Origin: a virus | Lineage: Duplodnaviria > Heunggongvirae > Uroviricota > Caudoviricetes | Virus record (IMG/VR): IMGVR_UViG_2529292922_000026 | Span: 1-13,550 of that record | Length of the DNA: 13,550 nt | Direction: 5' to 3' (one strand) | In this document: positions 1 through 13,550 of the stretch, piece by piece | Numbering within the stretch: position 1 is the first letter of the stretch | Layout of the letters: each line of letters opens with the position of its first letter | The notes under the pieces: generated by a model | What the model was told of the DNA's origin: nothing | What the model saw: the letters and a program-made list of their open reading frames with translations, nothing else | The model's database searches: none | Program-made: the position numbers and the translations under genes

Positions 1-1191
1 ATGCATCTGCTTGTCCATCCAAATGGTTCTAAGTACTGGCGTTTGCAGTACCGTTATGAGGGAAAGCAAAAAATGCTGGCACTTGGGGTTTATCCTGAAA
101 TCACACTAGCGGATGCCAGAGTACGTCGTGACGAGACGCGTAAGCTGCTTGCGAATGGCGTCGATCCGGGAGACAAAAAGAAAAATGATAAGGTTGAACA
201 GAGTAAAGCACGAACCTTTAAAGAAGTCGCGATTGAGTGGCATGGCACCAATAAAAAGTGGTCTGAAGATCACGCCCATCGTGTGCTAAAAAGTCTTGAA
301 GATAATCTTTTTGCAGCGCTTGGTGAACGTAATATCGCTGAGTTAAAAACTCGAGATTTATTAGCACCTATTAAGGCCGTAGAAATGTCTGGACGTCTTG
401 AAGTGGCCGCTCGTCTTCAGCAGCGCACTACAGCCATCATGCGCTATGCAGTGCAAAGTGGGTTAATTGATTATAACCCGGCACAAGAGATGGCTGGGGC
501 GGTTGCTTCCTGTAATCGACAACATCGTCCCGCGCTTGAATTAAAGCGCATCCCTGAGTTGCTTACAAAAATAGATAGCTATACTGGTAGGCCGCTAACC
601 CGATGGGCGATAGAACTCACTTTGCTGATCTTTATTCGGTCCAGTGAGCTGCGTTTTGCTCGTTGGTCAGAGATCGATTTCGAAGCGTCTATATGGACTA
701 TCCCACCGGAGCGGGAGCCTATTCCTGGAGTGAAACATTCCCATAGAGGCTCAAAAATGCGTACAACGCATCTAGTGCCTCTTTCAACGCAAGCTCTTGC
801 AATTTTAAAGCAGATAAAACAGTTTTATGGGGCCCATGACTTGATATTTATTGGTGATCACGATTCGCACAAACCCATGAGTGAGAATACGGTAAATAGT
901 GCGTTACGGGTCATGGGGTATGATACAAAAGTAGAGGTTTGTGGTCATGGCTTTCGAACAATGGCCTGTAGTTCATTGGTCGAATCAGGTCTGTGGTCTC
1001 GTGATGCTGTTGAACGTCAGATGAGCCACATGGCGCGAAATTCAGTGAGGGCCGCGTATATCCATAAAGCAGAGCATCTGGAAGAACGGCGATTGATGCT
1101 ACAGTGGTGGGCCGATTTTCTGGATGTAAACAGAGAAAGGTTTATCAGTCCATTTGAATATGCAAAGATTAATAATCCATTAAAACAGTAA
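1..1191 (+). CDS. P4-type tyrosine integrase, 5'-partial (ORF is open to the window edge, so the true start probably lies upstream)
   Basis: 396-aa ORF. N-terminal region (LLVHPNGSKYWRLQYRYEGK...LALGVYPEITLADAR) and C-terminal region (HGFRTMACSSL...RQMSHMARNSVRAAYIHKAEHLEERRLMLQWWADFL) match the architecture I recall for P4/CP4-57-type integrases. Confidence 0.85.
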   Translation: MHLLVHPNGSKYWRLQYRYEGKQKMLALGVYPEITLADARVRRDETRKLLANGVDPGDKKKNDKVEQSKARTFKEVAIEWHGTNKKWSEDHAHRVLKSLEDNLFAALGERNIAELKTRDLLAPIKAVEMSGRLEVAARLQQRTTAIMRYAVQSGLIDYNPAQEMAGAVASCNRQHRPALELKRIPELLTKIDSYTGRPLTRWAIELTLLIFIRSSELRFARWSEIDFEASIWTIPPEREPIPGVKHSHRGSKMRTTHLVPLSTQALAILKQIKQFYGAHDLIFIGDHDSHKPMSENTVNSALRVMGYDTKVEVCGHGFRTMACSSLVESGLWSRDAVERQMSHMARNSVRAAYIHKAEHLEERRLMLQWWADFLDVNRERFISPFEYAKINNPLKQ

Positions 1192-1195
1192 TCAT

Positions 1196-1222
1196 CCCGG
1201 GCAAATGCCCGGGAATTATTCT
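1196..1222 (+). terminator. Possible weak intrinsic terminator after the integrase
   Basis: CCCGGGC-AAAT-GCCCGGG perfect 7-bp stem directly after the TAA stop, followed by a moderately U-rich tail (AATTATTCT). Confidence 0.35.
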
Positions 1223-1591
1223 AGGATTATTTTCTTTGTTAAAAAAGACAAACGGTATTAACTGATGTATTTACTATTTACCGCTCCCTGCAGGGGGGAT
1301 TATTAGAATCCGCGGTTATTCATTATTTATATACATTCAATAAAAAAGTAACCTCATAAAAAATCCTGTACTCACAGGGTGATGCGGGATAACTGACGTA
1401 AGGAGTGCTGCAGGGATTTGATGGTCCCTTGTGCTGATATGAATACGGATATTTTATACAGAATACTTTTCAGTACAAGCGACTGTATTACAGTCTGCCA
1501 TATATGATTACCTGTGATCAGGAAGAATAAGTGGCTGAGGTTTCAAACTGTCTGCCGGTATATTCCTCTCTCCCTTAAAAACCATAACAGG

Positions 1592-5276
<3,685 letters not shown>

Positions 5277-5280
<4 letters not shown>

Positions 5281-5603
5281 CGACGTTAACTCAATGCCAG
5301 CAGCAGGTGCTGGATATGCTGATTTCTTATCAGAAAGAACGTGGCTTCCCGCCAACCAATCAGGAGGTGGCAACCATGCTGGGATACCGTTCAGTGAATG
5401 CAGCGGTGGAGCATCTTCGCGCACTGGAGAAAAAAGGCGTCATCACGATAAAGCGTGGCGTGGCCCGGGGCATCACGCTTCATACCGCGGTGAAGGACGA
5501 CGACAGCGAGGCGGTCGGGATTATCCGCTCACTGCTTGCCGGTGAGGAAAACGCCAGGCTGCGTGCAACCCACTGGTTACATAAGAGGGGCCTGAAAGTA
5601 TGA
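5277..5603 (+). CDS. LexA N-terminal DNA-binding-domain-like protein (winged HTH) lacking the S24 peptidase domain
   Basis: 108 aa. Residues 1-70 (LTQCQQQVLDMLISYQKERGFPPTNQEVATMLGYRSVNAAVEHLRALEKKGVITIKRGVARGI) align by eye with the LexA N-terminal domain ([63 protein letters not shown]). ATGA overlaps at both ends. Confidence 0.65.
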
Positions 5604-5989
5604 AGCTGATCCTGCCTTTCCCGCCCAGCGTGAACACGTACTGGCGACACCCCAACAAAGGGGCGTTTGCAGGTAAGAGCCTGATAAGCGCGGCGGGGCG
5701 AAAATTTCAGAGCGCGGCGTGCGCAGCAATAGTTGAACAGTTACGTCGTCTGCCGAAACCAACGTCGGCACCTGCTTCAGTGGAGATCGTGTTGTTTCCT
5801 CCGGATAACAGGATCCGCGATCTGGACAACTATAACAAGGCGCTGTTTGACGCCCTGACCCACGCGGGGGTGTGGGAAGACGACAGTCAGGTGAAAAGAA
5901 TGCTGGTGGAGTGGGGACCGGTTATCCCGGAAGGGAAGGTCGAGATCACTATCAGTAAGTACGAGAAAACGGCGGGTGCAGCTGCCTGA
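5600..5989 (+). CDS. rusA: Holliday-junction resolvase RusA
   Basis: 129 aa with the family motifs PPSVNTYW...DLDNYNKALFDALTHAGVWEDDSQV, the size and position of rusA in lambdoid nin regions. Confidence 0.85.
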   Translation: MKLILPFPPSVNTYWRHPNKGAFAGKSLISAAGRKFQSAACAAIVEQLRRLPKPTSAPASVEIVLFPPDNRIRDLDNYNKALFDALTHAGVWEDDSQVKRMLVEWGPVIPEGKVEITISKYEKTAGAAA

Positions 5990-6008
5990 TTAAGAGGAGA
6001 AACGAAGT

Positions 6009-6818
6009 ATGAATAATCTGATGGTCATTGATGGTATTGAAGTTCGTCGTGATGCTTATGGGCGTTACAGCCTGAACGATCTGCATCGCGCAGCAGTAGC
6101 ATCTGGTGCAAATGCCAGAACCAAGGAGCCAGGAAAGTTTCTTTCCAGCCAACAAACTGTTGAGCTTGTTCATGAATTAACCAACACCCAGAATTTGGGT
6201 GTTGACCCGGTGAGTGTGATTCATGGGGGAAATGAACGGGGAACGTATGTCTGTAAGGAACTGGTGTATGCCTATGCAATGTGGATCAGCCCGTCATTCC
6301 ATCTGAAGGTGATCCGTACTTTCGATATGGTAACCAGCGCGCCGGAAAAGTTATCCGGACAGGCTGCTGACAAGATGCAGGCTGGCGTGATCCTGCTGGA
6401 CTTTATGCGCCGGGAGTTAAATCTGTCTAACTCTTCAGTGCTTGGTGCCTGTCAGAAACTCCAGGAGGCTGTTGGCTTACCGAATCTGGCACCGCGCTAT
6501 GCCATTGATGCTCCTGCTGACGCGCCTGATGGCTCAAGCCGCCCGACACTGTCACTGAGTGCACTGCTGAAGCAGTATGGTATCCGCCTGACAGCTAATC
6601 AGGCATATCACCAGATGGCGAAGCTGGGGATCGTTGAACAACGTGAACGATACAGCCGTACCGCGATTAACAACATCAAAAAATTCTGGTCGCTGACGGC
6701 GAAAGGCTGCATGTTCGGCAAGAACATCACCAGTCCCGCAAATCCGCGCGAGACGCAGCCGCATTTCTTCGAATCCCGATTCCCTGAGCTGTTAAAGCTA
6801 CTCGATACCGTTCATTGA
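6009..6818 (+). CDS. KilA-N domain protein (Roi/antirepressor-like)
   Basis: 269 aa; N-terminus (MVIDGIEVRRDAYGRYSLNDLHRAAVASG) resembles the KilA-N DNA-binding domain; strong RBS GAGGAG; position between rusA and Q matches where roi-like genes sit. Confidence 0.5.
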   Translation: MNNLMVIDGIEVRRDAYGRYSLNDLHRAAVASGANARTKEPGKFLSSQQTVELVHELTNTQNLGVDPVSVIHGGNERGTYVCKELVYAYAMWISPSFHLKVIRTFDMVTSAPEKLSGQAADKMQAGVILLDFMRRELNLSNSSVLGACQKLQEAVGLPNLAPRYAIDAPADAPDGSSRPTLSLSALLKQYGIRLTANQAYHQMAKLGIVEQRERYSRTAINNIKKFWSLTAKGCMFGKNITSPANPRETQPHFFESRFPELLKLLDTVH

Positions 6819-6825
6819 GGTGACC

Positions 6826-6913
6826 GTGAGAGCACTACTGACCCCTGAAATTGCCCCGCGTATGGGGATCGTATTGTTCAGGCCAGGTTCAGAGCTGATG
6901 CCCCTGTTTATGC
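6826..6913 (+). pseudogene. 5' fragment of the DUF968 (YdfU-like) gene, separated from the gene body by the IS50-like insertion
   Basis: Frame open from GTG 6826 (RBS GAGG) or ATG 6862 up to the IS end. After removing the IS and one repeat copy the frame joins seamlessly to the ORF at 8468 (...PGSELMPLFM|QGRVLLEPEPE...). Confidence 0.5.
6906..6913. repeat. Direct repeat GTTTATGC flanking the IS50-like element (left copy)
   Basis: Perfect 8-bp repeat immediately outside both IS termini (left 6906-6913, right 8464-8471), consistent with a target-site duplication; 9 bp is expected for this family, so a boundary may be off by one. Confidence 0.6.
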
Positions 6914-8463
6914 CTGTCTCTTATACACAAATCCCCACCCGGGGATTTGTGATGTCTGTCAGTCTGCTTTAGGGGGACTCTTTCCATCCGGTAGTTTCCT
7001 TCCTCCCCGGCAGCGATTTTTTGAACTTTTTCCTCACCCGTTGATCTTCTCTTATATTTCATTTTCTTCGGGTCTGTTATGGTACTTTCTGATTGTTATT
7101 CATGGGCTAACGAGCAGTTTGGACATGCCCGTCTCGGTGATCCGCGTCGTACACGACGCCTTGTGTCACTGGCCTCTTCTCTCGCTCAGCATGCAGGTCT
7201 TTCTATTGTGAAATCATCCCAGTCCACTGCTCAGGTTGAAGGTGCGTACCGCCTGATACGTAACCCGTCTGTGTCCCCGCAAGCCATTGCCGAAGCCGGA
7301 TTTACCGCCACTGTAAGGGCATGTGAGGCTCATCCGCTGCTCCTCGCGCTGGAAGACACCACCACCATTAACTTCAGTCACAGTACGGCATCTGATGACC
7401 TGGGGAATACCACCACTAACCCGAAGACGCGCGGGCTGCTGGCTCACTCTGTCCTGATGTACGCCCCCGACAGCGCCCTGCCAGTCGGTCTTATCGAACA
7501 GCAGCGCTGGAGTCGTGCCACGGACACCTACGGTGTTAAGCACCAGCGAAAAGAACGTCCCTATGAAGAAAAAGAAAGTTACCGCTGGCAGCAGGCTTCG
7601 GAGCGCATGGCCGAACGGCTGGGGGAGATACAGAAACGGGTAATCACTGTCTGTGACCGGGAAGCGGATATCTGGCATTACCTGCATTATAAAGTCAGCC
7701 ACGGGCAGCGCTTCGTGGTGCGTGCAGCACAGAATCGCCGGCTGGAAGAAGCACCCGGCAAGCTCTTCGAACTGCCGGAAGTCCTGGCAACCGCGGGAAG
7801 CCACACGCTGAATGTGATGCAAAAAGGCGGGCGGGCAGCCCGCCAGGCCCGGATGTTCATCAGTTACAGCGAAGTCAGCATAAAAAATCCCGACAACAGC
7901 GGCCAGGCGCTCCCGCTCACGTATGTCTGTTGCCGGGAGCAGGCAGAGGACGGCGCCTGCTGGCATCTGCTGACGTCAGAAAAAGTGGCGAGTGCCGCCG
8001 ATGCGCGACGTATCGTCAGCCATTACGAGCGACGCTGGCTGATAGAGGAATACCACAAGGCGTGGAAAAGTGGTGGTACATGTGTGGAATCGCTGCGAAT
8101 GCAGACCCGGGATAACCTCGAGCGCATGGTGGTTATCAAGGCGTTTATCGCGGTGCGGGTGCTGGGCCTGCGGCAGGGCGGTATCAGTGAAGAAACACAA
8201 AATGACAGCTGTGAGAAAATACTGACGCCGACAGAGTGGAAACTGCTGTGGGTTAAGCTGGAAGGAAAACCGCTTCCGTCACAGATGCCGACACTGAAAT
8301 GGGCCTGTCTGAAACTGGCGAAACTGGGGCGATGGCATGACAGCAAACGCACCGGTCGCCCCGGTTGGGTAGTCATGTGGGATGGCTGGTTCAGACTTCA
8401 GGATATGGTTGAGGGTTACCTGGTGATGAAGTCTCTTGATCAGGAGATCTGATCAAGAGACAG
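6914..8463 (+). mobile_element. IS50-like insertion sequence (IS4 family), about 1550 bp
   Basis: Left end CTGTCTCTTATACACAAAT (6914-6932) resembles the Tn5 outside/mosaic end. Right end reverse complement CTGTCTCTTGATCAGATCT (8445-8463) is identical to the IS50 inside end as I recall it. Contains one transposase ORF. Confidence 0.8.
7079..8452 (+). CDS. IS4-family transposase (Tn5/IS50 Tnp-like)
   Basis: 457 aa; N-terminus (ARLGDPRRTRRLV...EGAYRLIRNP) and C-terminal YREK-type signature (SHYERRWLIEEYHKAWKSG) parallel Tn5 transposase; stop lies within the terminal repeat as in IS50. Confidence 0.9.
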   Translation: MVLSDCYSWANEQFGHARLGDPRRTRRLVSLASSLAQHAGLSIVKSSQSTAQVEGAYRLIRNPSVSPQAIAEAGFTATVRACEAHPLLLALEDTTTINFSHSTASDDLGNTTTNPKTRGLLAHSVLMYAPDSALPVGLIEQQRWSRATDTYGVKHQRKERPYEEKESYRWQQASERMAERLGEIQKRVITVCDREADIWHYLHYKVSHGQRFVVRAAQNRRLEEAPGKLFELPEVLATAGSHTLNVMQKGGRAARQARMFISYSEVSIKNPDNSGQALPLTYVCCREQAEDGACWHLLTSEKVASAADARRIVSHYERRWLIEEYHKAWKSGGTCVESLRMQTRDNLERMVVIKAFIAVRVLGLRQGGISEETQNDSCEKILTPTEWKLLWVKLEGKPLPSQMPTLKWACLKLAKLGRWHDSKRTGRPGWVVMWDGWFRLQDMVEGYLVMKSLDQEI

Positions 8464-8471
8464 GTTTATGC
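8464..8471. repeat. Direct repeat GTTTATGC flanking the IS50-like element (right copy)
   Basis: Identical to 6906-6913; contains the ATG (8468) used as start by the downstream truncated ORF. Confidence 0.6.
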
Positions 8472-9373
8472 AGGGGCGTGTCCTGCTGGAGCCAGAGCCG
8501 GAACGTTATTCATCTTTCGCCAGTGGTGCCGTTCCGGCGGCATCACAACCGCTGGCGGATGATCCTGCCGTTCGGACCGTGTTCCGCAATGAGGCAGTGA
8601 TCCGTCGTGCTGGTGGCGTGGAATGTCTTGAAAGCTGGTTACTTCGTGAAAAAGGTTGCCAGTGGCCTCATTCCGACTGGCACAGCGAGAACATGACCAC
8701 AATGCGACACACGCCGGGCGCAATCCGTCTGTGCTGGCACTGCGATAACCAGCTGCGCGATCAGTTCACGGAACGGCTGGAATCAATGGCAACGGATAAC
8801 TGTACCCGCTGGGTGTTGTCTGTTGTGCGTCGGGATCTCGGTTTTGATGACAGTCACGTTGTGACAATGCCGGAACTGTGCTGGTGGCTGATTCGTAATG
8901 ACCTGGCGGATGCCTTACCGGAAAGTGCAGCCCGTAAGGCACTGAGATTACCGAAGCCTGTTGTGCCGTCTGTCACCCGGGAAAGTGACCTTGTGCCTTC
9001 GGTTCCTGCCACCAGCATCATCCAGGATAAAGCGAAAAAGGTGCTGGCGCTGAAAGTGGATCCGGAGTCGCCGGAGTCTTTTATGTTACGCCCAAAACGT
9101 CGCCGCTGGGTTAATGAAAAGTACACGCGCTGGGTTAAGACACAGCCGTGTGCATGTTGTGGAAAGCCCGCTGATGATCCCCACCACCTGATAGGCCACG
9201 GTCAGTGTGGAATGGGTACAAAAGCGCATGACCTTTTTGTGTTGCCTTTGTGCAGAAAGCATCACGACGAGCTGCATGCGGATACCGTGGCATTTGAAGA
9301 GAAGTATGGCTCTCAGCTGGAGCTGATATTTCGTTTTATCGATCGTGCGCTGGCAATTGGCGTACTGGCGTAA
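8468..9373 (+). CDS. DUF968 family protein (YdfU-like), N-terminally truncated by IS insertion
   Basis: 301 aa; Cys/His-rich C-terminal region (CACCGKPADDPHHLIGHGQCG...LCRKHHDELH); located immediately upstream of the Q-like gene as in Qin-type prophages; its ATG sits in the flanking direct repeat. Confidence 0.6.
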   Translation: MQGRVLLEPEPERYSSFASGAVPAASQPLADDPAVRTVFRNEAVIRRAGGVECLESWLLREKGCQWPHSDWHSENMTTMRHTPGAIRLCWHCDNQLRDQFTERLESMATDNCTRWVLSVVRRDLGFDDSHVVTMPELCWWLIRNDLADALPESAARKALRLPKPVVPSVTRESDLVPSVPATSIIQDKAKKVLALKVDPESPESFMLRPKRRRWVNEKYTRWVKTQPCACCGKPADDPHHLIGHGQCGMGTKAHDLFVLPLCRKHHDELHADTVAFEEKYGSQLELIFRFIDRALAIGVLA

Positions 9374-9386
9374 GTGGAGAACGAGC

Positions 9387-10139
9387 ATGAACCTTGAAGC
9401 CTTACCGAAATATTACTCCCCGAAATCTCCAAAACTGAGCGATGACGCACCGGCGACAGGCTCTGGTGGTTTAACAATTACGGATGTGATGGCTGCGCAG
9501 GGGATGGTGCAGTCAAAAGCACCGCTTGGGTTTGCTTTATTCCTGGCAAAAGTTGGTGTTCAGGATCCTCAGTTTGCGATTGAAGGTCTGCTCAATTACG
9601 CGATGGCACTGGATAACCCGACATTGAATAAATTGAGTGAAGAAACCCGGCTACAGATCATTCCTTACCTTGTGAATTTTGCCTTTGCTGATTATTCCAG
9701 GTCTGCGGCAAGTAAGGCTCGCTGTGAGCATTGTGCTGGTACTGGATTTCATAATGTATTGCGCGAGGTGGTGAAACACTCCAGAAGCGGGGAATCTGTT
9801 ATTAAGGAAGAGTGGGTGAAGGAACTATGTCAGCATTGTCATGGTAAGGGAGAAGTCAGCACAGCATGCAGAGGGTGCAAGGGTAAAGGTATTGTCCTGG
9901 ATGAAAAAAGAACCCGGCTTCATGGCACGCCTGTTTATAAGGTTTGTGGGCGTTGCAATGGAAACCGGTTTAGCCGTTTACCAACCACACTGGCGCGGCT
10001 TCATGTCCAGAAGCTGGTACCAGACCTGACGGATTATCAGTGGTACAAAGGATATGCAGATGTCATTGATAAACTGGTTACAAAGTGCTGGCAGGAAGAA
10101 GCATATGCAGAGATACAATTGAGAAAGGTGACAAGATAA
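9387..10139 (+). CDS. Late-gene antiterminator Q-like protein (QuuQ-like) with four CxxCxGxG repeats
   Basis: 250 aa from ATG 9387 (RBS GGAGA 7 nt upstream), preferred over track start 9345, which overlaps the upstream gene. Position immediately upstream of a candidate promoter plus intrinsic terminator and tRNAs. Motifs CEHCAGTG, CQHCHGKG, CRGCKGKG, CGRCNGN. Confidence 0.6.
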   Translation: MNLEALPKYYSPKSPKLSDDAPATGSGGLTITDVMAAQGMVQSKAPLGFALFLAKVGVQDPQFAIEGLLNYAMALDNPTLNKLSEETRLQIIPYLVNFAFADYSRSAASKARCEHCAGTGFHNVLREVVKHSRSGESVIKEEWVKELCQHCHGKGEVSTACRGCKGKGIVLDEKRTRLHGTPVYKVCGRCNGNRFSRLPTTLARLHVQKLVPDLTDYQWYKGYADVIDKLVTKCWQEEAYAEIQLRKVTR

Positions 10140-10170
10140 ATGGTTTTCGCCGAAGATGACGACATGATGC

Positions 10171-10199
10171 TTGCATTTTTCAAAAAATATGGATAAGAT
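10171..10199 (+). promoter_or_regulatory. Candidate late promoter pR' (and overlapping Q-utilisation region)
   Basis: TTGCAT, 17-bp spacer, TAAGAT, about 30 bp after the Q stop and about 45 bp before an intrinsic terminator; position-based inference. Confidence 0.3.
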
Positions 10200-10245
10200 T
10201 TTCCCAACGATGGGCTTTGTATGTCTACCGTTGATAAGATTTAAG

Positions 10246-10270
10246 AACCCGCCGATGCGCGGGTTTTTTT
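10246..10270 (+). terminator. Intrinsic terminator, candidate tR'
   Basis: AACCCGC ... GCGGGTT stem followed by T7 (GAACCCGCCGATGCGCGGGTTTTTTTG). Confidence 0.6.
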
Positions 10271-10450
10271 GTACCCAGAATCCTGTGAGCTATACGGAAA
10301 GTACACAGAAAGGAAGGTGCGACCACAATTAATAACAAAATCTTAAAAATTGCACATGGCACTATTAGTTTTCTAAATATTGTGTATTTTTTGTATTGCA
10401 GGATGACCCTGTAACGAAGTTTGCGTAACAGCATTTTGCTCTACGAGTTT

Positions 10451-10479
10451 GCCAGCCTCCCCCAGTGGCTGGCTTTTTT
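10451..10479 (+). terminator. Second intrinsic terminator
   Basis: GCCAGCC-tcccccagt-GGCTGGC perfect 7-bp stem followed by TTTTTT. Confidence 0.5.
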
Positions 10480-10490
10480 ATGTCTGTAGC

Positions 10491-10601
10491 GTCAAAGCAG
10501 CAATGTCGCTGGGGCGTCGTGCAATTGGCGTTGAGCTGGAGACTGAACGTTTTGAGCAGACGGTCAGGGAAGTTCAGGATTTAGTCAGTCAGAACGGATG
10601 A
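10491..10601 (+). pseudogene. C-terminal remnant of a DNA methyltransferase
   Basis: Frame reads ...VKAAMSLGRRAIGVELETERFEQTVREVQDLVSQNG*. The GRRxIGxE segment looks like the C-terminal motif I associate with N4/N6 DNA methyltransferases; no upstream catalytic portion is present. Confidence 0.35.
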
Positions 10602-10641
10602 TATTGCAGAATTAGTTACGTACCGTTATTATCCTGCGCCC

Positions 10642-10717
10642 GGCCCTTTAGCTCAGTGGTGAGAGCGAGCGACTCATAATCGCCAGGTCGCTGGTTCAAA
10701 TCCAGCAAGGGCCACCA
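10642..10717 (+). tRNA. tRNA with anticodon CAU (Ile2/lysidine-type, ileX/ileZ-like; would be called Met by anticodon)
   Basis: 76 nt, acceptor stem GGCCCTT/AAGGGCC, anticodon loop CTCATAA, ends CCA; close to E. coli ileX as I recall it. Confidence 0.85.
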
Positions 10718-10724
10718 TCACATA

Positions 10725-10801
10725 CCGCCATTAGCTCATCGGGATAGAGCGTCAGCCTTCGAAGCTGGCTGTGCGGGGTTCAAGTCCCCGATGGCGGTCC
10801 A
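10725..10801 (+). tRNA. tRNA-Arg (anticodon UCG)
   Basis: 77 nt, acceptor CCGCCAT/ATGGCGG, anticodon stem TCAGC/GCTGG with loop CTTCGAA, T-arm CGGGG-TTCAAGT-CCCCG, CCA end. Confidence 0.85.
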
Positions 10802-10814
10802 TTATCAGCATCAT

Positions 10815-10891
10815 GCGTTGTTAGCTCAGTCGGACAGAGCAATTGCCTTCTAAGCAATCGGTCACTGGTTCGAATCCAGTACAACGCGCCA
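10815..10891 (+). tRNA. tRNA-Arg (anticodon UCU)
   Basis: 77 nt, acceptor GCGTTGT/ACAACGC, anticodon stem ATTGC/GCAAT with loop CTTCTAA, CCA end. Confidence 0.85.
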
Positions 10892-10904
10892 TATTTATTT
10901 ACTT

Positions 10905-10929
10905 GGCTCGCTTTTGCGGGCCTTTTTTT
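10905..10929 (+). terminator. Intrinsic terminator after the tRNA cluster
   Basis: GGCTCGC-tttt-GCGGGCC (one G-U pair) followed by T7. Confidence 0.5.
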
Positions 10930-10981
10930 GTATCTGCGTTACACCATTAACTAATAAATCGAGTGCTTATCAGGAGGCTAT

Positions 10982-11206
10982 GTGAAAAAACTGATGGTGA
11001 CGATTGGTCCGTTCGAAACAGAAGTTAGTTTTCGTGTTGTTCAGGGGGAGAGTGTACTTGTTGAAGATGTATTTCATGGAAAATCAACAGGTCCTTATGT
11101 AAAAGAATATCTTATCGACGCCACGGATGAAAATATTGAGGTGGTGTACGATTCCGTCAATCACCCTGATTTGATCATTAAGGCAAAATTGAAGCCACTT
11201 TATTGA
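10982..11206 (+). CDS. Hypothetical small protein (74 aa), no recognised domain
   Basis: ORF with AGGAGG 4 nt upstream of GTG 10982 (alternative ATG at 10994); sits where toxin cargo lies in Stx phages. Confidence 0.5.
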   Translation: MKKLMVTIGPFETEVSFRVVQGESVLVEDVFHGKSTGPYVKEYLIDATDENIEVVYDSVNHPDLIIKAKLKPLY

Positions 11207-11258
11207 TCTGACCGGGAGCAATCATAAAATATCTCTGGGTACCCACAAGGAGATAAAT

Positions 11259-11489
11259 ATGTTTGTTTCTGAAGTGTTAATGGAAGATAAGGACAACAAA
11301 GGATGGGTTAAAGGTTGGGCTGTGGTAAGAAGCTCGCCCTGGCATCTTGTTGGGGTTTTTGCGACAGAGGAAGACGCAGAAACGGAAGCAAGAAAGATGG
11401 GAGATAAGTACGAGGTTCACTATGGCTCGCATCGAACAGGAAGTGATGATTTTGTCTGGGGGAGTAACAGTCGTTTAACCCCAGAATAA
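11259..11489 (+). CDS. Hypothetical small protein (76 aa), no recognised domain
   Basis: ATG with AAGGAG 6 nt upstream; 3 of its 4 Arg codons are AGA, AGA and CGA; followed by a terminator. Confidence 0.55.
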   Translation: MFVSEVLMEDKDNKGWVKGWAVVRSSPWHLVGVFATEEDAETEARKMGDKYEVHYGSHRTGSDDFVWGSNSRLTPE

Positions 11490-11500
11490 TCCCGTAACTG

Positions 11501-11525
11501 AGGTCGCTATTGGCGGCCTTTTTTG
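11501..11525 (+). terminator. Intrinsic terminator after the small-ORF pair
   Basis: AGGTCGC-tattg-GCGGCCT (one G-U pair) followed by a T-run. Confidence 0.45.
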
Positions 11526-11656
11526 TATCCGCGCCACGCCCGGCGCATATCAACCACAGAGCCTTTCGGGGGTGAGCTTACGGAGTGGTCAGTGTGACTT
11601 TCTCTGTGGGCAGATCGCTCCCGGGCGTTGGCTCACCCACCCAAAGGAACGTCACG

Positions 11657-12088
11657 ATGTTTGGTATTTTTGGTAAAAAAGCCCGCCGAGCGGCAGTGGA
11701 AATTAAAAAGTTTGAGAAACGTGATCTGGCACAGGCGGTTATTAATGCTGCCTATCTGGTGGCCTATGCAGATGGTGAATGTGAGGCTTCAGAGAAAGCG
11801 AAGATCGAGCAGATCTTGCGTAACCAGCCTGCGTTGTCCGCGTTTACGTCAGAAATTAATGCGATTAGCGCAACCATTATCGGTCAGCTGGATACGAACT
11901 TTAAAATTGGTCGTCGAGCGGCATTGCGTGAAATTGAAGATGTGAAACACGATACGCGTGAAGCGGAAGATGTGCTGGATGTGGCGGTGGCCATTGCGGA
12001 GGCAGACGGCGAAATTGAGCCGGAAGAGCGCAAGGTGCTGGAAGAGATTGCCGGTGTTCTGGGTCTTCGTCTGGAGAATCACCAGTGA
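11657..12088 (+). CDS. TerB-like (tellurite-resistance TerB family) protein
   Basis: 143 aa from ATG 11657 (RBS AAAGGAA); two helical repeats with ADG motifs (YLVAYADGECEASEKAKIEQIL and AVAIAEADGEIEPEERKVLEEIAGVLGL), the pattern I associate with TerB. Track ORF starts at GTG 11585 in the same frame. Confidence 0.65.
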   Translation: MFGIFGKKARRAAVEIKKFEKRDLAQAVINAAYLVAYADGECEASEKAKIEQILRNQPALSAFTSEINAISATIIGQLDTNFKIGRRAALREIEDVKHDTREAEDVLDVAVAIAEADGEIEPEERKVLEEIAGVLGLRLENHQ

Positions 12089-12252
12089 CGGTAAAACTGC
12101 GCCTGGCTGTGGCTGCACTCCTGCTGTTTCTGGTGGTGATGGTGGATTTCACCAGCAGAATCATGTCGGTGCTGGCGGATGGGGTGCTGGTCTGCGGCAT
12201 TGTGGTATTGCTGTGGCCGGTGATAAAAAGAAACAGCCTGCATAATGCTTGA
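12085..12252 (+). CDS. Candidate small hydrophobic membrane protein (55 aa), translationally coupled to the TerB-like gene
   Basis: GTG start overlapping the TerB stop (GTGA); translation VTVKLRLAVAALLLFLVVMVDFTSRIMSVLADGVLVCGIVVLLWPVIKRNSLHNA has two hydrophobic stretches. Not in the ORF track. Confidence 0.4.
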   Translation: MTVKLRLAVAALLLFLVVMVDFTSRIMSVLADGVLVCGIVVLLWPVIKRNSLHNA

Positions 12253-12566
12253 TTTTTTTATTTGCTGTTTATTAAAAATACTACTGCATGGTGAATCCCC
12301 CTGTGCGGAGGGGCGATCAGCAACCAGGTATATGGGATAATCGCGGATTCAGGTGCTGATACTGAATTCACCGGGAGGCACCCGGCACCATGCTTTGCCG
12401 CAAAAGTGTTGTTTCTGTTTTTCTCAAACTATCATCGTTATCCCTTTATTTCCGGCTGCGCATGGCGTGGCCTTTTTTTTACGACCAGCCACTGGCAGAT
12501 GGCCATCCTGTAATTTGATTCCGGTTCCGGCTTTTTAACTCTGTTCCTGTACACGGGAGAAATTCG

Positions 12567-13550
12567 ATGTCGATTAAACATTATGATGTTGTCAGGGCGG
12601 CGTCGCCGTCAGACCTTGCGGAAAAGCTGACACACAAACTGAAAGAGGGCTGGCAGCCGTTTGGTAGTCCGGTGGCCATAACCCCTTATACCCTGATGCA
12701 GGCGATTACAGCAGAAGGTGATGTGGTGGTCAGTGGTGCAACTGAGCCGGATTGGTACTACGTCATCGTACTGGCCGGGCAGTCCAATGCCATGGCTTAC
12801 GGTGAAGGGCTTCCGCTGCCGGATTCATACGATGCTCCGGATCCGCGCATTAAACAGCTGGCGCGCCGCAGTACAGTTACGCCGGGTGGGGCTGCATGCA
12901 GATATAACGATATTATTCCGGCCGACCACTGCCTGCATGATGTGCAGGATATGAGTACGCTGAATCATCCGAAGGCAGACCTGAGCAAAGGGCAGTACGG
13001 CTGTGTCGGCCAGGGCTTACATATTGCCAAAAAACTGCTCCCGTATATCCCGAATAACGCGGGGATCCTGCTGGTACCATGCTGTCGTGGTGGTTCGGCA
13101 TTCACCCAGGGCGCGGAGGGGACATTCAGTGCGGACACGGGGGCCAGCCAGGATTCGGCACGCTGGGGTGTGGGTAAACCGTTATATCAGGACCTGATTG
13201 CGCGCACTAAAGCTGCATTACAGAAGAACCCGAAAAATGTGTTGCTGGCGGTGTGCTGGATGCAGGGAGAGTTTGACATGAGCGCCGCCACCCACGCACA
13301 GCAACCTGCGCTGTTTACAGCCATGCTGACACAGTTTCGTGCTGACCTCTCCGTGTTTAACGCGCAGTGCCATGGTGGCAGTGCTGCAGATGTGCCGTGG
13401 ATTTGTGGTGACACGACGTATTACTGGAAAAATACATACGCTACCCAGTACGACACCGTGTACGGCGGGTATAAAAACAGGGAGAGTGAGGGCGTTTATT
13501 TTGTGCCCTTCATGACAGACGGTAACGGCGTCAATACCGCCACTAACGCA
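12567..13550 (+). CDS. SASA-domain sialate O-acetylesterase, NanS-p/YjhS-like, 3'-partial
   Basis: Open frame from ATG 12567 (RBS GGGAGA) to the window end, 328 codons with no stop; absent from the ORF track because no stop lies in the window. Motif GQSNAMAYGEG; this gene family sits downstream of stxB in Stx phages. Confidence 0.8.
   Translation, partial: MSIKHYDVVRAASPSDLAEKLTHKLKEGWQPFGSPVAITPYTLMQAITAEGDVVVSGATEPDWYYVIVLAGQSNAMAYGEGLPLPDSYDAPDPRIKQLARRSTVTPGGAACRYNDIIPADHCLHDVQDMSTLNHPKADLSKGQYGCVGQGLHIAKKLLPYIPNNAGILLVPCCRGGSAFTQGAEGTFSADTGASQDSARWGVGKPLYQDLIARTKAALQKNPKNVLLAVCWMQGEFDMSAATHAQQPALFTAMLTQFRADLSVFNAQCHGGSAADVPWICGDTTYYWKNTYATQYDTVYGGYKNRESEGVYFVPFMTDGNGVNTATNA

Follow-up and report, generated by a model that had tools for sequence, protein, structure and literature searches.

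The TerB-family gene and the small DUF3927 gene towards the end of the window (the whole stretch of 13,550 nucleotides that was analysed, positions 1 to 13,550 of IMG/VR record IMGVR_UViG_2529292922_000026) are almost certainly a copy of tciA-tciB, an already named and routinely annotated phage accessory operon. The one element of the locus that looks undescribed is the leader RNA in front of tciA, which comparison with its relatives suggests is probably a real structured RNA. As first described, the finding matters little: the accessory operon is very common and already has its name and its annotation, and the question of its function goes back to the 2004 P1 genome paper. The leader, with its conservation across genera, its covariation and its lack of an Rfam family, is the part that could repay follow-up. 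Identity, leader and function taken together, we lean, if only slightly, towards the account given here as the best overall explanation of the region.

The prophage and its late region

The DNA of the window comes from a lambdoid E. coli prophage, and between positions 11200 and 12600 it does not differ from E. coli O145 RM9873-C1 (100% identity). An integrase stands first on the left and is followed by an IS21-family insertion (istA/istB), Dam, a LexA-like gene, RusA, KilA-N, an IS4-like transposase, DUF968 and the Q antiterminator at 9387-10139. Downstream of Q lie three tRNA genes (10642-10891), two small genes for hypothetical proteins, the TerB/DUF3927 pair and the first part of a SASA (nanS-p type) esterase gene; the esterase is followed by holin, lysozyme and head genes in the identical RefSeq region. 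The original prediction had called the pair late-expressed cargo, and its position after Q and before the lysis genes, both here and in other species, fits this; "late-operon cargo" is a fair description of the pair in temperate phages. In Stx phages, the site that tciAB occupies here, after Q and the tRNAs and before the nanS-p esterase and the lysis genes, is the stx slot. The prophage as a whole is probably defective and its tciAB block intact. Two insertion sequences, the IS21-family istA/istB and the IS4-like transposase, are found in its early region (window 2906-4707, 7079-8452). The tRNA gene at 10642-10717 is reported as tRNA-Met (CAT) by ARAGORN and the identical gene is tRNA-Ile in RefSeq; in P1, an ileX-like tRNA-Ile2 (CAT) adjoins the tci operon.

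The left edge of the conserved module is formed by an intrinsic terminator (11500..11520, plus strand) that was found by a consensus scan and consists of a 9-bp stem followed by a T run. Another terminator, at 12454..12472 on the plus strand, closes the block with an 8-bp stem, six pairs of which are GC, and a T8 run. The nanS-p-type (SASA) esterase gene then starts at 12568, SASA being annotated in the identical RefSeq region. It is exactly at the first terminator, at about 11501, that the sequence becomes similar to O157:H7 prophages, and the 76-aa gene upstream of that terminator (11259-11489, phrog_4280) is variable; position ~11501 is a mosaic boundary at a terminator. Directly after tciB, outside the protein pair and within the same conserved block, lies an STnc100-family sRNA related to PasD (12260..12429, plus strand; Rfam RF02076, 102 bits). 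PasD sRNAs were described as related to STnc100 in a 2026 preprint. Among 5426 complete E. coli genomes, about 2850 have a match to the ~125-nt core of this sRNA.

A scan for sigma-70-like promoters between 11520 and 11657 found none, and the -35/-10-like hexamers that can be read by eye before tciA were rejected for their poor spacing or for a missing conserved T6. With a terminator upstream and no sigma-70-like promoter, tciAB would most likely be transcribed as part of the Q-modified late transcript, the Q-modified polymerase reading through the upstream terminator into the two genes.

The TerB-family gene tciA

The first gene of the pair, tciA (11657..12088, plus strand), encodes a soluble TerB-family protein of 143 aa (RefSeq WP_001299632.1). 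That the protein has a TerB fold with two ADG repeats, as had been predicted, was well supported. TciA matches Pfam PF05099 (TerB) at 61 bits against a cut-off of 24.4 (E 1.7e-16) and phrog_632 at E 1.2e-68, and its profile aligns over the full length with the solved TerB structure 2JXU (E 2.4e-13, residues 14-137 against 20-144), with both motifs in register. These two A-D-G...E motifs, A38-D39-G40..E46 and A116-D117-G118..E124, are found within ADGECEASE and ADGEIEPEE, and are aligned with SDGVSSEE and SDGNFDDDE of 2JXU as paired acidic D-G-x5-E motifs. The AlphaFold2 model of TciA is all-helical (pLDDT 89.3, pTM 0.84), and its best neighbours in the PDB by Foldseek were the TerB-like 2h5n (probability 1.0, TM 0.55-0.63) and 2ou3 (probability 0.90), with E-values that are weak at 0.017-1. 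The C-terminal half of the protein also bears a weak similarity to DjlA (NCBIfam, E 5e-7) and to DUF533 (Pfam, E 6e-5), both of which fall below cut-off.

The TerB-family reading frame is open over 11585..12088, and the gene had originally been taken to start at 11585. On comparison with homologues, the true start of tciA is the ATG at 11657 and not the GTG at 11585, because the RefSeq start is placed there, the homologues all begin with M-F/L-G(-I/F), and an AAAGGAA lies 8-9 nt upstream. The 24 codons between the GTG and the ATG are non-coding leader, in which the relatives carry indels that are not divisible by three.

The small membrane protein gene tciB

The second gene, tciB (12085..12252, plus strand), encodes a DUF3927 mini membrane protein of 55 aa (RefSeq WP_000216636.1). 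Its GTG start lies inside "cacca-GTGA-cgg", overlaps the tciA stop codon by 4 nt and has a GGAG 8 nt upstream. The GTGA overlap of this start with the TerB stop is as first reported, both open frames being found where they had been placed. Other statements about the small ORF have to be corrected: it had been said to be absent from the six-frame track, and it is present in the six-frame listing; it had been expected to escape routine annotation, and PGAP calls it "DUF3927 family protein" beside TerB in all of the RefSeq records listed. The novelty that this implied also falls away: P1 has the genes under the names tciA and tciB, each of them has its Pfam and PHROG family, and of 5426 complete E. 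coli genomes 803 have them annotated, with a median of 6 copies of the 596-bp pair by megablast.

TciB matches Pfam PF13064 (DUF3927) at 62.3 bits over residues 3-51 (cut-off 25, E 4.3e-17) and phrog_1470 "TciB-like" at E 4e-30 over positions 1-54 of 54; no holin family was among its Pfam or PHROG matches. An exhaustive profile search for DUF3927 among 1.84 billion representative proteins returned only 111 clusters (at 50% identity), nearly all of them standalone proteins of 50-65 aa, the few longer ones being frameshift chimeras, and a sequence search of the PDB with DUF3927 gave no match. Across distant phages, residues D21, F22, D32, G33 and P45 are invariant. The median dN/dS of tciB is 0.23, with synonymous sites near saturation, and judging from these codon comparisons the gene is under purifying selection. 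A chance reading frame is what the small size and GTG start, and nothing else, would speak for; given the Pfam match, the dN/dS value, the 111 clusters and a conserved start context, the ORF is practically certain not to be one.

The description of TciB as a two-helix hydrophobic protein stands only in part. Two hydrophobic stretches are evident in the 19-residue Kyte-Doolittle maxima (2.36 at residues 2-20 and 2.47 at residues 29-47), whereas the AlphaFold2 model is one continuous helix (residues 3-54, pLDDT 92), so that hydropathy is what speaks for a two-helix hairpin. The possibility that TciB is a mini-TerC was rejected, as the DUF3927 profile aligned with K. pneumoniae TerC at an hhalign probability of 0.1%. 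Apparent natural TerB-DUF3927 fusions (P0127, P0184, P0248 and P0287) were likewise discarded as evidence of interaction, their scrambled junctions marking them as frameshifted or chimeric calls.

Pairing and distribution of the two genes

A DUF3927 profile scan of one genome per species identified 18 loci in the Enterobacterales, which include Pseudescherichia, Franconibacter, Rosenbergiella, Enterobacter, Buttiauxella, Pantoea, E. albertii and others. The original prediction had proposed to check whether the two genes co-occur with the overlapping start in other genomes, and an intact TerB gene is indeed found immediately upstream of DUF3927, with an overlapping or abutting junction, at 14 of the 18. 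With this conservation and the hydrophobic stretches of TciB, the original prediction survives the refuting tests that it had set itself. At the other four, TerB is cut to its last 66 residues (one locus), keeps its last 9 codons (one) or is missing altogether (two). The intact junctions are all GTGA, TGATG/TAATG or TAAATG, with the exception of an 8-nt overlap at a TTG start (locus L018), and a GGA(G) lies 8-13 nt upstream of the starts of the tciB homologues at these junctions. Because junctions with a 4-nt overlap, a 1-nt overlap or no gap are conserved in this way, tciB is probably translated through coupling or by re-initiation at the GTGA junction, and the synthesis of TciB would then depend on that of TciA.

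The upstream neighbours of the pair in the 18 genomes are mostly Q-like antiterminators (7+3+3 members), and those downstream are holins (5+4+3), endolysins and spanins. The pair is also present in the virulent N4-like phages Pollock and FSL SP-076, in Erwinia jumbo phages (ChrisDB) with a diverged TciB, in Actinobacillus phage pPE4, where it comes directly before the holins, and in Fostie and Evi. In P1, the N4-like phages and the Erwinia jumbo phage, it is located far from the lysis genes.

TerB and DUF3927 genes can each be found without the other. Loci L015 and L019 and phage 434 have DUF3927 and no TerB, the TciB gene of 434 sitting behind an unrelated 247-aa membrane protein; TerB occurs alone, followed by a terminator hairpin, in the Pseudomonas PMBT3, Vibrio K481 and Rhizobium TM16 phages. 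At L015, from E. albertii (2854-3153), a deletion took all of tciA except its last 9 codons and left the leader fused straight to tciB. In Pseudomonas phage AF (locus L109, 1632-1853), an unannotated ORF for a 73-aa single-span membrane protein overlaps the TerB stop through GTGA; it is not DUF3927, and may be an analogous, unrelated small membrane partner of TerB. A conserved third component comparable to TciC of P1 was also considered and rejected, since the downstream ORFs of 434, Pollock, SP-076, Fostie and ChrisDB, none of which has a Pfam match, are unrelated and for the most part not hydrophobic.

A probable structured leader RNA upstream of tciA

Across genera, the stretch of 135 nt that separates the terminator from the tciA ATG is better conserved than would be expected of an untranslated region, and the putative structured 5' leader RNA of tciA (11524..11659) matches its covariance model at 146.7 bits. 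The elements of the leader are all on the plus strand. Comparative analysis places a hairpin, H0, at 11531-35:11542-46, followed by helix A (11554-61:11602-09, CCACAGAG:CUCUGUGG), helix B (11570-78:11630-38, GGGUGAGCU:GGCUCACCC) and helix D (11582-90:11613-21, GGAGUGGUC:GAUCGCUCC), with a small hairpin at 11588-91:11595-98. Helices B and D form one long two-part helix. Just 5' of B, an anti-Shine-Dalgarno (anti-SD) sequence CCUUU (11562-66), which is almost invariant, can pair with the Shine-Dalgarno (SD) sequence AAAGG just 3' of B' (11643-47). Helix A crosses B and D, which means either alternative folds or a pseudoknot; since the 3' strand of A sits in the loop that D closes, A:A' is incompatible with full B and D pairing unless a strained pseudoknot is formed. 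In constrained folding, the SD-sequestering fold came to -52.5 kcal/mol, compared to -38.7 for the A:A' fold. The Shine-Dalgarno sequence would be hidden in the more stable fold (B, D and CCUUU:AAAGG) and exposed when helix A:A' forms in its place.

The case for this structure is a comparative one, because folding of the single sequence gives only a weak signal, with a minimum free energy z-score of only -1.7 and a fold that differs from the comparative one. In a MAFFT alignment of 21 distinct leader sequences, 93.2% of the cells pair, compared to 40-50% when the partners are slid against each other. In the model-fitted alignment of 46 distinct sequences, which leans towards the model, the figures are 94.9% and 31-49%, and compensatory change is seen in 13 pairs compared to 4.5 in shuffles (0/500), a statistic that is inflated by the relatedness of the sequences. 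The SD and anti-SD are so nearly invariant that this pairing has little covariation of its own. A TerB gene lies within 700 nt downstream of 170 of the 173 matches to the leader-core pattern in the viral contigs and other loci examined. No match to the leader was found in Rfam 15, where searches at the gathering threshold and at E<=10 gave noise of 14 bits or less, and a literature search with the leader core sequence gave unrelated matches only. In the phage records LC567818, LC567822 and others, the match to the leader is confined to its first 49 nt, beside an annotated ISEc20 (IS110 family), which suggests that ISEc20 inserted into the leader in the PPompW prophages.

Diverged copies of the leader were detected with the covariance model in front of other genes. 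One subtype, present in 276 phage records that are mostly Stx phages, precedes a KilAC-domain antirepressor (Ant), and others precede a KilA-N/ORF11CD3 protein, an HNH endonuclease, a 53-aa ORF, and a 246-249-aa protein of unknown function that comes after the lysis cassette. Such copies lie at 8850-8993 in L133, 5045-5165 in L009 and 12122-12238 in L141, and on the minus strand at 1348-1493 in L173 and 1790-1930 in L130. Every leader copy found elsewhere has a terminator before it, and the diverged copies all have the same anti-SD...SD arrangement at their end. Helices A, B and D differ in sequence among the copies yet stay complementary, and for helix A the best-stem score summed over 11 subtypes is 73, compared to a shuffle mean of 55.6 and a shuffle maximum of 69.5 (0/1000).

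From this arrangement we infer a regulatory role for the leader, as a translation gate or a processing site for late-operon cargo. As the late antirepressor gene of Stx phages has it too, the leader may control several late-operon cargo genes, and if it is true that it gates their translation or processing, it would be a common control element that includes the late antirepressor of Stx phages among its targets. The wider proposal, which we regard as plausible without thinking it probable, is that of an undescribed class of cis-RNA (~120-145 nt, post-terminator), switchable between the A:A' fold and the long B and D helix that hides the ribosome-binding site and shared by otherwise unrelated accessory genes in temperate phages of enterobacteria (tciA, Ant, KilA-N, HNH and genes of unknown function) and, separately, of TciA/TciB as a minimal TerB membrane-surveillance or exclusion system.

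Possible roles of the protein pair

By analogy with the ter operon, it is tentatively proposed that the two proteins make up a membrane-docked TerB module that is active in lytic growth, a suggestion that we consider possible and still doubtful. TciB would insert in the inner membrane and there dock or partner TciA, as TerC does TerB. At the membrane during lytic growth, the pair could exclude superinfecting phages or colicins, or else buffer membrane stress until programmed lysis, and it would be dispensable for plaque formation. Superinfection exclusion or lysis modulation by such genes is an idea already in the literature (PMC7824862, PMC4319500, PMC9603915), and Iyer and colleagues proposed that phage Ter genes, standalone TerB included, serve in competition with superinfecting phages (PMC7824862).

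Roles in lysis timing, in host-protective conversion or as toxin and antidote are also possible, and are less well supported than the membrane partnership. That TciB is small, has two hydrophobic segments and basic ends, and is encoded with TciA directly upstream of the holin and endolysin genes in temperate phages would suit a holin- or antiholin-like TciB with TciA as its cytoplasmic regulator, together tuning the downstream lysis cassette. However, only the TciB/DUF3927 families, and no holin family, match TciB, and the related prophage represented by the identical RefSeq region already has a class II holin, lysozyme and lysis protein of its own; the distance of the pair from the lysis genes in P1, the N4-like phages and the Erwinia jumbo phage, and the fact that P1 knock-downs still form plaques, also make such a role in timing unlikely. 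We give about as little credit to lysogenic conversion, in which the pair would confer tolerance of tellurite, oxidative stress or colicins as the ter operon does. The homology to TerB of terZABCDEF, from which the P1 name was given, and the multiple copies in EHEC-type genomes (median 6) are in keeping with it, but TerB is one of seven ter genes only, and tciAB has a terminator upstream and no match in the promoter scan. The virulent N4-like and jumbo phages that carry the pair make no lysogens (PMC3728262, PMC4319500), and its presence in these strictly lytic phages argues against any purely lysogen-protecting role.

A still less probable reading, to which we would give very little weight, makes TciB a membrane-damaging peptide that is held in check by TciA, with their ratio fixed by coupled translation. 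TciB is tiny and hydrophobic and has conserved acidic residues within a hydrophobic stretch, and the junctions point to tight translational coupling; against this, no toxin-antitoxin families match, and an unchecked toxin is unlikely because TciB persists alone in phage 434 and E. albertii. The membrane-docked TerB module has evidence against it as well: PADLOC gives no match, DUF3927 is unrelated to TerC, the AlphaFold2 model of TciB is a single helix, either gene occurs alone, and P1 forms plaques without the pair.

Comparison with known systems

Phage leaders that sequester the Shine-Dalgarno sequence and are processed by RNase III, such as the lambda N leader, have the ribosome-binding site within a long imperfect helix and lie inside a polycistronic phage transcript. 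The tciA leader would resemble them in both respects, but has no sequence or Rfam relationship to them. Among the proteins, DjlA and YebE/DUF533 provide examples of a TerB-like domain that shares one chain with its inner-membrane anchor. The weak similarity of the C-terminal half of TciA to these proteins is one likeness, whereas the anchor here would be a separate polypeptide and there is no J domain.

The closest relative is the tci operon of P1. As cited in PMC4319500, the names tciA and tciB date from the 2004 P1 genome paper of Lobocka et al., and the P1 record contains tciA-tciB-tciC, each gene overlapping the previous one by one base. As in P1, a TerB homologue (TciA, 42% identity) is followed by a DUF3927 homologue (TciB, 50% identity) and the stop and start codons overlap, although through GTGA here and through a single nucleotide in P1. 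P1 also has tciC, for a 35-aa TM peptide, whereas after 12252 there is no such ORF here and an STnc100-type sRNA and terminator are found instead. The pair here is located in a lambdoid late operon and has the structured leader; the P1 operon adjoins ban and tRNA genes and is without that leader. In both cases this is an accessory gene pair: P1 tciA, tciB and tciC were all non-essential in a CRISPRi screen (PMC10695390), and the tci operon is a variable region of P1-like phage-plasmids that was lost in nearly half of one subgroup (PMC9603915). In the Pollock genome note, the role of TciA in a lytic phage was stated as unknown (PMC4319500).

With the ter operon (terZABCDEF), the pair shares the TerB fold and acidic motifs, and also a membrane-protein gene directly after the TerB gene, as terC directly follows terB there. 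TerB of the ter cluster was reported to bind the membrane protein TerC (PMC11003894). Here, by contrast, the partner has 55 aa and is unrelated to the 346-aa TerC, and terZ, terA, terC, terD, terE and terF are missing from both the window and the 26-kb RefSeq region.

TerB domains are also part of the validated defence systems Bunzi and Shango (bioRxiv 2022.05.11.491447) and Dionysus (bioRxiv 2025.09.30.679545), in which TerB, reported to be membrane-associated, was proposed to be a membrane-surveillance domain. The defence models of PADLOC-DB 2.0 gave no significant match to the pair, the best being PDC-S48 for TerB (E 0.0056), with nothing for TciB. The combination of a TerB domain with a membrane protein is common to these systems and to the pair, but DinA/DinC and the other system genes are absent here, and the pair is phage-encoded rather than located in a defence island. 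Given that TerB occurs in validated defence systems, the two-gene phage version, at roughly 600 bp, would be a convenient minimal model of TerB at the membrane.
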